Source of the DNA: an uncultured bacterium
GTDB taxonomy: Bacteria > Krumholzibacteriota > Krumholzibacteriia > JACNKJ01
Assembly: GCA_963695095.1 (NCBI GenBank)
Contig: CAVOFT010000001.1
Location: 2,720,001-2,784,000 of the forward strand
Length of the DNA stretch: 64,000 nucleotides
Reading direction: 5' to 3'
Shown here: one piece after another, positions 5,753 to 14,692 of the stretch
How the letters are laid out: every line of letters starts with the position of its first letter
Position numbering within the stretch: position 1 is the first letter of the stretch
Translations under genes and position numbers: made by a program
Notes under the pieces: model-generated
Databases searched by the model: none
Seen by the model: only the letters and a program-made list of their open reading frames with translations
Told to the model about the DNA's origin: nothing

Positions 5753-8907
<3,155 letters not shown>

Positions 8908-10887: not shown

Positions 10888-11587
10888 TCAGGGCTTCCAG
10901 ACCTGCCAGACCTTGCCGACCAGGTCCGGGCCCACCTTGAGCGTGGGCTTGCCGGGCGTCCAGCCGGCGGGCGTGGCCTCGGCGCCGCCGCTGGCGCGCA
11001 CGAGCTGGAAGGCCTGCACCTGGCGCTCCAGCTCGGCGAAGTTGCGGCCGACCGGCGGGGTCATCACTTCCATGGCCTGGATCACGCCGTCGGGGTCGAT
11101 GAGGAAGCGCCCGCGGATGTCCACGCCGCCGTCCTCGTCGAAGACGCCGTAGATCTGGCCGATGCGGCCGCCGGCGTCGGTGAGCATGGGGAAGGGCACG
11201 CCGCCCTCCACCATCTTCATGAGCTCCTCGCTCTGCCAGATCTTGTGCACGAAGCGGCTGTCCGTGCTCATCGAGAGCACCTGGACGCCGAGCTTGACGA
11301 GGCTCTTGTGCTGGGCCGCGACCGCGGCCAGCTCCGTGGGTCAGACGAAGGTGAAGTCGCCGGGGTAGAAGCAGAGCACCACCCACTGGCCCTTGTAGTC
11401 GCTGAGGCTGATGTTCTTGAAGCCGCCGTCCACGAAGGCCGTCGCCTCGAAGTCCGGGGCTTCCTTGCCGACGCGTGCTAGCACTCTTCGTACCTCCCGT
11501 TGCCGCGGGCGCCGCGCTCTCGTCGGCGCTCTCCACCACCTTGGGGCCGCGGGCACTCGCGACGCAGCCCTGGTGCTTCTCGGCCAT
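10888..11587 (-). CDS. prxU: selenocysteine-containing peroxiredoxin (AhpC/PrxU type); in-frame UGA at 11341-11343
   Basis: [15 protein letters not shown] places UGA at the peroxidatic Cys of FTFVCPTE, and the frame continues to ..VGRN..GWTPG. A SECIS-like hairpin follows. AAGGAGGT precedes ATG 11587, which is out of frame with the core. There is also an in-frame GTG at 11484 with GGAGG. Confidence 0.9.
11310..11332 (-). promoter_or_regulatory. bacterial SECIS element of the peroxiredoxin
   Basis: GCU-GGCCGC-GGUC-GCGGCC-C-AGC; the loop begins 17 nt after the UGA. Confidence 0.75.
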
Positions 11588-11695
11588 GGCACCTCCTTGC
11601 GCCCCGCGCGCCGGCAGCCGCCGCGCGCCTCGGACGCCATGGTTGCATTGTACTGAAACATCGCGGAATTGCAAGGAGGGCCGGGCAGGGGGGGC

Positions 11696-11727
11696 AAAGA
11701 AAGGGGCCCCGCCGAACGGCGGGGCCC
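11696..11727 (-). terminator. intrinsic terminator closing the intergenic unit upstream of prxU
   Basis: GGGCCCCGCC-GTTC-GGCGGGGCCC followed by CTTTCTTT. Confidence 0.8.
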
Positions 11728-11814
11728 GGAATCGGTCGGCATCGGTGACGTTGGGTTTCCCCGCCGGGCGGGGGATGATCCCAAGTCAGCGGATGACGTC
11801 GGGATGGCCCGTGG

Positions 11815-11859
11815 TTACGGGGACGCCACCTCCGCCAAGCCGCGTATACCTGAAGTCAC
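11815..11859 (-). CDS. putative 14-aa peptide MTSGIRGLAEVASP
   Basis: GTG lies 7 nt after AGGAGG; stop TAA at 11815-11817. Confidence 0.4.
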   Translation of the reverse strand: MTSGIRGLAEVASP

Positions 11860-12093
11860 TGGACCACCTCCTTTTCCGGGCGAACCGGAATTCGGTGAGA
11901 CCCACCTCACCCGGCCCCCTGACCGCCCTCGTCTCGGGGACCGCCGCAGCGTCTGCGGATGGATACCTGTCCACTATGATCGGGCATTTCCGGGCGGAAG
12001 CCAAGGGGAAAATGCGGGCGGCCGGGGCAGCAGCCCCCCGGGCGGCCCCCCACGCTGGGGACTGCCCGCAGGCAGAGCGCAGCCCTGCGCCCC

Positions 12094-12843
12094 CTACTCG
12101 ATGTTGTACTGGATGGTGACGACGACGCGGGCCAGCTTGTCGATGGTGCTCTTGTCGTAGCGTCCGCCGTACTCGTAATCCCCGTCGCTATCGCCCGCGG
12201 CCAGGATGTAGAAGGCGCCCTGCGAGGCGCTGCGCATCGAGCCCACCTTGGCGTCGCCGTTCTTGGCGAACTCCTCGGCGCGAACGCGCGCGTTCTGCGT
12301 GGCGGCGCCGATCAGGGACATCTTCACGTCTTCCAGGTTCGAGATCATGAACAGCGGCTGGTCGTGGGTGACGGCCAGGTGCTCGGCCTCGAACTCCAGG
12401 ATCGGCCCTGCGCATGCCAGCACCCGGGCCAGGTCCTGCGTGGCGAGCGTCGTGGACTGCCGAGCCTCGAAGCCGGACTGGACGCGGCGATCGCGACCGT
12501 CGCGCCCCTCCCGCATCACCCAGTGCGGTTCCACGAACTCCTGCGACTCCGTGATCGCGTCGGCGGGAAAGCCCTGCGCCAGCAGGAAGGCGCGCACCTT
12601 GGGCTGCGTGGCGCGCAGGGCGGCCAGCGCGGCGGCGAAGGTGGGAGCCGTTTCCGTGACGTTCACGGTGCACTCCGCGCGGTCGGCCTCGACCGGTTTC
12701 TCGGCCAGACCCTTCACCATGATGCTCTGGTTGCTGTCGCGCAGGTGCTTGATCTGCGTGCCGAGGACGTAGGCCGCGACGACGAGACCGATCGCGAGGA
12801 TCGCGGCCACGGCCACCGAGGGGCGCGAAGGGGAAGCGTTCAT
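12094..12843 (-). CDS. SIMPL (DUF541) domain protein
   Basis: N-terminal anchor, VKGLAEKPVEAD, ATQNARVRAEEFA, SASQGAFYI and DKLARVVVT. Confidence 0.85.
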   Translation of the reverse strand: MNASPSRPSVAVAAILAIGLVVAAYVLGTQIKHLRDSNQSIMVKGLAEKPVEADRAECTVNVTETAPTFAAALAALRATQPKVRAFLLAQGFPADAITESQEFVEPHWVMREGRDGRDRRVQSGFEARQSTTLATQDLARVLACAGPILEFEAEHLAVTHDQPLFMISNLEDVKMSLIGAATQNARVRAEEFAKNGDAKVGSMRSASQGAFYILAAGDSDGDYEYGGRYDKSTIDKLARVVVTIQYNIE

Positions 12844-14535: not shown

Positions 14536-14541
14536 ACCGGG

Positions 14542-14614
14542 TGGGCGATACTGGGATCGAACCAGTGACCTCATGCGTGTGAAGCATGCGCTCTCCCAGC
14601 TGAGCTAACCGCCC
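14542..14614 (-). tRNA. tRNA-Val(CAC), CCA not encoded
   Basis: GGGCGGTTAGCTCAGCTGGGAGAGCG-CATGC-TTCACAC-GCATG-AGGTC-ACTGG-TTCGATC-CCAGT-ATCGCCC-A forms a full cloverleaf. Confidence 0.95.
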
Positions 14615-14616
14615 CT

Positions 14617-14692
14617 TGGTGGACCGCAGGAGGATCGAACTCCTGACCTCTGCATTGCGAACGCAGCGCTCTACCAGCTGAGCTAGCGGCCC
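14617..14692 (-). tRNA. tRNA-Ala(CGC)
   Basis: Cloverleaf with anticodon arm CTGCG-TTCGCAA-TGCAG, a G3:U70 pair and encoded CCA. Confidence 0.96.

Follow-up and report, generated by a model that had tools for sequence, protein, structure and literature searches.

A pseudoknotted RNA family with an extended Shine-Dalgarno sequence and a 14-codon reading frame: evidence for the family and a tentative role in engaging ribosomes

A 16-nucleotide (nt) complement of the 3' end of 16S ribosomal RNA (rRNA), set before a reading frame of 14 codons, raises the question of whether the product of such a locus is a peptide, an RNA, or the act of translation itself. The locus lies in a stretch of 64,000 nt from an uncultured member of the Krumholzibacteriota (assembly GCA_963695095.1, contig CAVOFT010000001.1, positions 2,720,001 to 2,784,000), which is referred to below as the window and in which all positions are given. 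As read from the sequence, the unit occupies the minus strand from about 11966 to 11697, and its RNA would be about 270 nt long. A preliminary description, made from the letters alone, had regarded it as a stand-alone structured unit, could assign it to no named family, and had suggested either an RNA that holds ribosomes at both initiation and termination, as a possible sponge, store or sensor, or a very strongly translated micropeptide. The comparative analysis presented here identifies it as a member of a structured RNA family that is well supported by covariation and is missing from Rfam 15.

A DNA search recovered the unit from 22 of 61 related genomes, including 9 of the 11 from the window's own family. 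The first 20 loci, found by BLAST, aligned over about 280 nt with compensatory changes in 25 of 53 predicted pairs, and were used to build a covariance model, R1. A pattern scan of 185,579 species, each represented by one genome, returned 101 loci, of which 97 were members and 4 were chance matches. In total, 117 loci were collected, 72 of them non-redundant at 88% identity. With R1, each of the 72 representatives scored in the range 101-265 bits, and the 4 chance pattern matches were not recognized. The record titles of the members name Krumholzibacteriia, Latescibacteria, Thermoanaerobaculia and other Acidobacteriota, Holophagales, Gemmatimonadota, Eiseniibacteriota, 'uncultured Fibrobacteraceae' and others. 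Within the window's own phylum, R1 matched 66 of 121 genomes (56 of the 104 of high quality), with a single match in 65 of the 66 positive genomes. It also matched 12 of 101 genomes in the phylum of the Acidobacteria record, 11 of 12 in the small phylum of a record titled Gemmatimonadota bacterium, and all five genomes of other labels, once in each.

A scan with Rfam found no family at its gathering score in the region, as the preliminary description would have led one to expect. At E-values up to 10, there was no match on the 5' domain, so that no known riboswitch class was matched, and the matches other than the one to CC2171, which is considered below, were driven by the terminator. The family is also undescribed in the literature searched, which comprised open-access papers and bioRxiv only. 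Whatever its function, this is a new structured RNA that would merit an Rfam entry.

The features of the unit, including the open reading frame (ORF), the predicted helices (P) and the pseudoknots (PK), are listed here in the 5' to 3' direction of the RNA.

11973..12004, minus strand: promoter-like region, with TTGGCT at 12004-11999 and CATAGT at 11978-11973
11944..11958, minus strand: hairpin P1 (CCGCAG/CTGCGG), a covarying helix
11912..11943, minus strand: P2, enclosing the small hairpin P2a, whose loop GGGC (11928-11925) is the 5' strand of PK1
11894..11911, minus strand: hairpin P3 (GGGTGAG/CTCACC), whose loop TGGGT (11904-11900) is the 5' strand of PK2
11878..11881, minus strand: GCCC, the 3' strand of PK1, which pairs with GGGC at 11928-11925 and lies 3 nt 5' of AAAGGAGG
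11859..11874, minus strand: extended Shine-Dalgarno (SD) sequence AAAGGAGGTGGTCCAG, complement of the 16S 3' end
11815..11859, minus strand: micro-ORF of GTG (11859-11857), 13 codons and TAA (11817-11815), MTSGIRGLAEVASP
11819..11839, minus strand: 5' strands of the long-range helices P4 (CTTGG), P5 (GGTGGCGT) and P6 (CCCC)
11833-11826, minus strand: second GGAGGTGG, inside the 5' strands of P4-P6 and ending 8 nt before the TAA
11808..11822, minus strand: local hairpin with the stop codon in its loop, competing with P6 for CCCC
11763..11807, minus strand: variable domain, carrying GGATCATC (11781-11774), which can pair with GGTGGTCC of the SD
11736..11762, minus strand: 3' strands GGGG (P6), ACCCA (PK2, 11756-11752), ACGTCACC (P5) and GCCGA (P4)
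11696..11727, minus strand: intrinsic terminator, a 10-base-pair (bp) G+C stem at 11727-11704 followed by CTTTCTTT

The start of the RNA is predicted at about 11966-11960. The GTG-started ORF of 14 codons and the second GGAGGTGG before its TAA can be read directly from the sequence, as the preliminary description had reported.

Conservation of the fold was measured as pair counts in the 72-sequence alignment, using the nested helices and the two added pseudoknots; the alignment was fitted to the nested helices and favours them, and the pseudoknots are outside the model. The fold consists of ten helices, two of which are the pseudoknots. Standard pairs were formed by 97.1% of cells, compared to 40-49% when the partners were slid by 1-3 columns, and 39 of the 57 pairs had changed on both sides. 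None of 500 shuffles reached any of the observed pairing measures. In the 5' domain, both-side changes were found in all five pairs of P1 (96.5% of cells paired), in 6 of 7 pairs of P2, in 3 of 3 of P2a and in 5 of 6 of P3 (99.3% paired). In the 3' part, compensatory changes were present in 5 of 5 pairs of P4, 2 of 8 of P5 and 1 of 4 of P6, in which 94-99.8% of cells were paired, and in all ten pairs of the terminator helix (99.3% paired). Thus, two of the hairpins that had been seen in the single sequence, P1 and P3, are conserved and covary. A third, TTCCGG/CCGGAA directly before the SD, is confined to this genome and its nearest kin; the corresponding stretch of the family contains a pseudoknot 3' strand.

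PK1 joins the P2a loop GGGC with GCCC, and PK2 joins the P3 loop with an ACCCAAC sequence adjoining P5. Both are nearly invariant in the core family (97.9% of cells paired in PK1) and covary in ten divergent members that were found by the model. Read by eye, the alignment shows PK1 as CAGC:GCTG in L246 and L247, as CGGC:GCCG in L242 and as GACGG:CCGTC in L243, in place of GGGC:GCCC. Similarly, PK2 changes from GGGT:ACCC to GGGA:TCCC in L242, L244, L246 and L247, and to GGGG:CCCC in L243, and it reads TAGGG:CCCTA in L052. A pairing of CGCCC with the SD that was proposed by RNAalifold showed no both-side changes and was replaced by PK1, which covaries.

The ORF is itself part of this fold, in that P4-P6 link codons 7-14 to a stretch about 60-100 nt downstream. 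The second GGAGGTGG is mostly the 5' strand of P5, where GGTGGCGT pairs with ACGYCACC, and the P5 partner tracks its variation, with G-C replaced by A-U in seven sequences and C-G by U-A in two. L249 has a degenerate form of the motif (GAAGGTG), and L246 and L247 have altered ones. The second SD sequence noted in the preliminary description is therefore present as described; its proposed role of holding the ribosome at termination is not borne out by a strand that shows compensatory changes and is degenerate in these three members.

The overall arrangement is that of two domains tied by the two pseudoknots. The 5' domain (P1, P2/P2a and P3) comprises about 100 nt that are folded, pseudoknotted and conserved, and the 3' domain is formed by P4-P6. 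The roughly 40 nt between PK1 and P4 are free of conserved helices and carry the SD, the start codon and the first seven codons; the start (GTG or TTG) lies 5 nt 3' of the GGAGGTG motif. A length of 40 nt is about one ribosome footprint. Two local variations of the fold may be recorded here. In L025 and L066, PK1 and the SD are separated by an inserted hairpin of about 35 nt (columns 130-158 of alignment A2). In many members, a CCTCC, CTCCA or CCACTG sequence is seen by eye 3' of the stop hairpin (window 11808-11840, minus strand), with the second GGAGG or the P4 strand as a potential partner; it is possible that such a local hairpin is an alternative fold that rivals the long-range helices and is formed first during transcription.

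The complementarity to the 16S 3' end, which was the most prominent claim made for the locus, held when it was compared with the genome's own rRNA. The single 16S gene detected in this genome ends in ...GCGGCTGGATCACCTCCTTTCT, and all 16 positions of 11874-11859 (minus strand) can pair with it, one of them as G-U. Fourteen of the 16 face the free 16S tail, and pairing of the last two would require the terminal 16S hairpin (a GGAA-loop hairpin, read by eye) to open at its base. With up to two mismatches, AAAGGAGGTGGTCCAG occurs once in the window, and none of 100 shuffles contained any match. The 12-nt core AGGAGGTGRTCC has two occurrences in the 3.64-megabase genome, one here and one antisense to the 16S 3' end. 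Because a control with the reversed pattern gave nine genome matches, the 12-mer alone is not beyond chance; it is the conservation in other loci that argues for the long SD as a real feature.

This conservation is extensive. In 107 of the 117 loci, GGAGGTG is followed by [AG]TCC, at positions that the search pattern had left free, and the alternative of A or G preserves pairing with a U of the 16S tail. Among the ten divergent members found by the model alone, nine keep AGGAGGTGATCC and the tenth, L251, has AAGGGGGTGATCC. By these comparisons, the long SD is the most constant feature of the family and persists in divergent members.

A second partner for this sequence exists within the RNA. 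In about half of the members, the variable domain contains a stretch that is able to pair with the SD extension or the start codon, for example GGGATCACCCC or CACTGGA. We compared the duplex between the variable domain and the initiation region to shuffled controls in 60 loci, after 12 of the 72 had been removed by a motif filter. The duplex of the window locus had an energy of -17.9 kcal/mol and a z-score of -1.0, and the median z over the 60 loci was likewise -1.0, with values below -2 in 15 loci and above 0 in 13. On these figures, we rejected a universal internal mask of the SD as a defining feature. Since internal pairing does not account for the conservation of the SD extension, pairing with the 16S tail would be the simplest reason for it.

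Conservation extends to the frame that follows. ORF statistics were taken over the 117 loci; the search pattern had prescribed how far the second GGAGGTG lies from the start, but neither the absence of a stop between them nor the presence of a later one. The start codon is GTG in 108 loci, TTG in 8 and CTG in one (L053), where a TTG one codon later would also fit. In 71 loci, the frame runs to a first stop at codon 15, in 45 to one at codon 16 and in a single locus to one at codon 8, and all three stop codons are in use (TAA 32, TAG 46, TGA 39). In most loci, the two other frames are closed within the first few codons. All ten divergent members have an ORF of 14-15 codons, nine after AGGAGGTGATCC and L251 after AAGGGGGTGATCC, and one of these ORFs starts with ATG. 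The locus with the early stop, L063, has TAG where its close relative L074 has TTG, which may be a sequencing error or a tolerated truncation. At the other end of the frame, the hairpin around the stop codon, which had been described from the window, was found in most members; its loop sequence varies, and an in-frame stop is always present.

The encoded peptide shows no such constancy in its first half. Residues 2-8 vary freely (SSGICGL, GSHRLGS, QSRPTAT and DLDKHGL are examples), and no amino-acid bias is visible. The constant C-terminal residues, EV[ATV]S[PL], are encoded by helix strands, and the rare changes in them, from A to T or V, keep the pairing (pairs 235-382 and 236-381). We conclude that selection probably maintains a frame of fixed length and place and not a peptide sequence. 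The preliminary description had pointed to relatives with the long SD and the second GGAGGTG as the place to compare nucleotides with peptide; both elements are conserved there, the nucleotides covary, and the first half of the peptide is not conserved.

Several observations bear on whether the unit is transcribed on its own. Upstream of P1, a TTG-box is found at 46-41 nt in 29 of 70 loci and TANNNT at 20-18 nt in 27 of 70; the CATAGT of the window aligns with CATAAT in L015 and L094. A promoter scan of the window did not flag the site at 11973..12004. Neighbours varied on both strands. For the downstream genes, clustering of ORFs proved to be swamped by spurious frames, and the survey was made by Pfam on 121 of 147 downstream ORFs. 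A Pfam-supported downstream ORF was present in 37 of 41 loci. The first gene has the orientation of the unit in 26 of these and the reverse orientation in 11, and the genes belong to more than 25 different families. The promoter-like boxes at fixed distance, the covarying terminator and the varied neighbours, together with the conserved fold, support the earlier suggestion of a stand-alone structured unit.

RNA data had been named as a check on this suggestion. In each of four metatranscriptome runs, from four studies, one contig lay on the unit (209, 229, 244 and 211 nt). These contigs span 11726/11734 to 11933/11956 at 95-99% identity; they give neither ends nor strand, and their depth cannot rank expression. 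No RNA-library contig lay on 11600-11718 or 11957-12007, which is not readable as absent transcription. The runs had been chosen by 31-mer index shares of 0.25-0.40, and these shares were not used as evidence of habitat. The sequence, or that of a close relative, is present in RNA libraries, and this is a weak hint of a discrete transcript. Run X17 contained a second contig with a loose end at window 11858 and a relative's copy with a perfect GGATCACCTCCTTTC on the opposite strand; more than one family member was therefore present in that library.

The best Rfam match to the unit, in the right place and on the right strand, was CC2171 (RF01867), at 23.2 bits (E 0.0074 on 601 nt, 0.011 genome-wide), where the gathering score is 75. 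The second-best match of this model in the genome was the antisense of the 16S 3' end, and the likeness therefore rests on the SD motif and the terminator. Outside these two elements, the window aligned to the model with low posterior probabilities, and the consensus helices of the family were not found. CC2171 is an alphaproteobacterial RNA that was discovered in Caulobacter crescentus; Northern blots have validated it in two alphaproteobacteria, including Methylorubrum, and it is described as an orphan without known function or inducing condition (bioRxiv 10.1101/2022.01.24.477521).

We collected CC2171-like loci (L123 onward) from metagenomes by the presence of the first 24 nt of the CC2171 consensus, and obtained 107 distinct ones. 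Only 5 of 10 tested passed the Rfam cut-off, at 76.7-101.3 bits, so the CC2171 family is wider than its model; R1 gave them at most 20 bits. The likeness of design is nonetheless close. The CC2171 consensus starts with the same 18 nt, AAAGGAGGUGAUCCAGUG, from which the window differs at one G-U-compatible base, and, like the unit, CC2171 is stand-alone and has a terminator and a short GTG ORF after the 18-nt start. In the 107 loci, this ORF has 14-29 codons (mode 22-25), begins with MSHC and uses all three stop codons. A CTGGA-type copy of the 16S tail (CTGGATC...) lies inside the ORF in 91 of 107 loci and can pair with the SD extension, and a helix joins ORF codons 3-5 to a stretch before the terminator. 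In contrast to the unit, CC2171 lacks the 5' domain and both pseudoknots, occurs in other phyla and has a longer ORF; in the window, the motif is not 5'-proximal as in CC2171, but is preceded by about 100 nt of folded RNA. These comparisons mark the two as separate families that follow one design. Neither this likeness to CC2171 nor the pseudoknotted 5' domain was visible to the preliminary description.

What function would this design serve? The reading that we favour, to which we would give a probability somewhat short of even, is that the unit is at once a pseudoknotted small RNA (sRNA) and a ribosome-engaging micro-mRNA (a very short messenger RNA), whose state reports or buffers free ribosomes. 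In this scheme, a 30S subunit would dock on the displayed site without unfolding the RNA and would be held by a duplex of 12-14 bp with the 16S tail. The ribosome would then have to unwind P4-P6, and PK2 with them, to reach the conserved stop, such that each round of translation would turn the compact RNA into an open form, which would refold after termination. The product would be this ribosome-dependent cycle and not the peptide, serving to titrate or sense free, initiation-competent ribosomes by a logic similar to that of 6S RNA with RNA polymerase. The second GGAGGTG would be primarily a helix strand; with the stop codon positioned in the A site, it would lie 6 or 9 nt 5' of the codon in the P site, and we can only conjecture that it adds a contact at termination.

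Known systems offer partial parallels. 6S RNA is a stable structured RNA that mimics open promoter DNA and from which a short product is copied; making this product causes the RNA to refold and releases the polymerase. By analogy, the unit would offer a model initiation site and a 14-codon template whose reading must unfold the 3' domain. It differs in that the machine would be the ribosome and in that the fold is multi-domain with pseudoknots instead of one long interrupted hairpin; 6S RNA itself (RF00013) was unmatched in the genome, which is 93.5% complete. Transfer-messenger RNA (tmRNA) is pseudoknotted and stable, has a short internal frame with its stop in a hairpin, and acts on ribosomes without an SD or start codon. 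The unit shares the pseudoknots and the short frame with a stop in a hairpin, but has an SD and a start codon and lacks a transfer RNA (tRNA)-like domain. ARAGORN found no tmRNA in the window, and a regular one is encoded elsewhere in the genome (185.8 bits). RMF and HPF are protein hibernation factors that mask the anti-SD region, and an RNA that holds the 16S tail would likewise block mRNA recruitment, here without a protein.

If the favoured reading is true, several barely studied phyla would have stable RNAs built around the strongest possible ribosome-binding site, with a mini-message whose length and stop matter and whose sequence does not. It would point to regulation by the act of translation on a dedicated RNA, which, for stand-alone bacterial sRNAs, is undescribed in the open-access and bioRxiv literature searched. 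A bolder extension, which we consider rather doubtful, is that the unit and CC2171 are independently the ribosome's counterpart of 6S RNA. Both would be structured decoys that capture initiation-competent 30S subunits or 70S ribosomes through a duplex with the whole free 16S tail and let them go only once they translate the built-in template of 14-25 codons, which unfolds the decoy. No fewer than five labelled phyla would then possess an RNA that buffers or gauges their free ribosomes. This would be the first testable idea for the function of CC2171, and one that is amenable to ordinary genetics in Caulobacter or Methylorubrum.

Several points weigh against such a role. The function is read from sequence rather than shown. 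Titration of ribosomes would need very many copies of the RNA. R1 was unmatched in 55 of the 121 genomes of the window's phylum, including all 25 of family f4 and all 4 of family f7; the RNA is therefore dispensable. The genome also has a gene for an HPF-type hibernation factor. The second GGAGGTG and its distance from the start were partly imposed by the search pattern, although the motif is also present in the 20 loci found by BLAST and in 7 of the 10 found by the model. Only in about a quarter to half of the members is it clear that an internal mimic of the 16S tail would mask the SD, and no uniform on/off switch is evident. The constant EV[ATV]S[PL] overlaps helices, and it may also have a role as peptide. 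Finally, the RNA-library contigs may stem from DNA, which such libraries can contain, and they are no proof of transcription.

Among the alternatives, the unit could be a dual-function or translation-gated base-pairing sRNA that targets mRNAs in trans by means of a conserved single-stranded stretch, such as ACCCAAC or the variable domain, which translation of the micro-ORF would merely expose or hide. We regard this as unlikely, but as an explanation that has to be taken seriously. A stand-alone unit with promoter-like boxes and a terminator of its own is what it would predict, as are the invariant short motifs, and translation would free the 3' strands of P4-P6. A conserved ORF within a stand-alone sRNA, which characterizes dual-function sRNAs, appears here as conserved start, frame and stop. 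However, ACCCAAC, the best-conserved motif that looks unpaired, pairs internally and covaries with the P3 loop. Hfq (PF17209) was not found in this genome, which at 93.53% completeness is no proof of its absence. In addition, an action in trans would leave the match of the SD to 12-14 nt of the 16S tail unexplained.

A micropeptide gene, in which the 14-15-residue peptide is the product and the fold stabilizes or tunes an efficiently translated mRNA, is improbable. The conserved start, frame and stop, the very strong SD and the constant EV[ATV]S[PL] would be expected of it. It is weakened by the free variation of residues 2-8, by the constant residues being encoded in helix strands with only pairing-neutral changes, and by the stop at codon 8 in L063. 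Moreover, a small mRNA needs no pseudoknotted 5' domain of 100 nt.

We give a similarly low probability to a binder that is not translated and that would hold 30S subunits, free or immature, by the 3' tail of their 16S rRNA and so store or protect them or control their maturation, the ORF merely clearing accidental starts. Complementarity that is conserved to the last bases of the tail, at a site that is unique in the genome and displayed between two folded domains, is consistent with such a binder. Yet every member has an ideally spaced start, in one case ATG, which is the opposite of selection against translation, and the position of the stop within the structure is conserved.

A cis-acting leader or attenuator, in which a signal sensed by a leader peptide would govern read-through at the terminator into prxU or some other downstream gene, is very improbable. 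In leader-peptide attenuators and arrest peptides (trp, erm, tnaC and similar systems), the short ORF is wholly within the exit tunnel at termination, the position of the ribosome selects between alternative pairings, and a terminator lies 3' of the ORF. The short ORF, the alternative pairings and a terminator 5' of prxU resemble this plan, but the unit has no conserved gene in cis and no visible amino-acid bias, and has a large conserved 5' domain. The downstream genes differ at nearly every locus and are on the opposite strand in 11 of 37, and since the neighbouring genes vary, the unit is not a leader. In the same-genus relative L003, an RF-1-domain gene takes the place of prxU, and in the window a separate promoter-like site lies between the terminator and prxU. 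Least credible is a CsrA/RsmA sponge in which the two GGAGG motifs bind a CsrA dimer, which, despite two GGA-containing motifs about 40 nt apart and a CsrA gene in this genome, was rejected on co-occurrence in the 121-genome sample, where families f5 and f8 carry the RNA without CsrA (10/12 vs 0/12 and 3/8 vs 0/8), and because one of the motifs is a helix strand.

The surroundings of the unit in the window are as follows. Its upstream neighbour on the minus strand is a SIMPL/DUF541 gene, with an end at 12094, which is followed by a G+C-rich hairpin and T-run and then by the unit. Downstream of the terminator is prxU (minus strand, 10888-11484, with a GTG start at 11484). The strong terminator that had been described as separating the unit from prxU was confirmed at 11727-11704, and so was prxU itself, whose in-frame TGA is codon 48. 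This codon occupies the peroxidatic position of a prxU-type peroxiredoxin (motif FTFVUPTE) with AhpC/TSA and 1-cysPrx_C domains. The promoter-like sequence between the terminator and prxU is TTGCAA-16-TACAAT (11647-11674, minus strand); 3' of it, an ATG at 11586 has a GGAGGTG of its own, in a frame that differs from that of prxU. Two further ORFs were discarded. A 72-residue ORF overlapping the unit (11786-12004, minus strand) had no Pfam match and its frame is not conserved, and a 356-residue ORF over prxU, rich in Arg, Gly and Pro, was taken as a spurious frame of high G+C content.

A third RF-1-domain gene lies at 8559-8852 (minus strand), 2.7 kilobases 3' of the RNA on the same strand. It is short, has a GGQ motif in the translation from relatives, and is one that we take to be ArfB-like. 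In some relatives, an RF-1-domain gene directly follows the RNA terminator (L003, L026, which equals L005, and L042, which equals L011); this linkage was seen in only 6 of 117 loci, close relatives included. Further along the window, two adjoining tRNA genes, Val(CAC) and Ala(CGC), are located at 14540-14692 on the minus strand.

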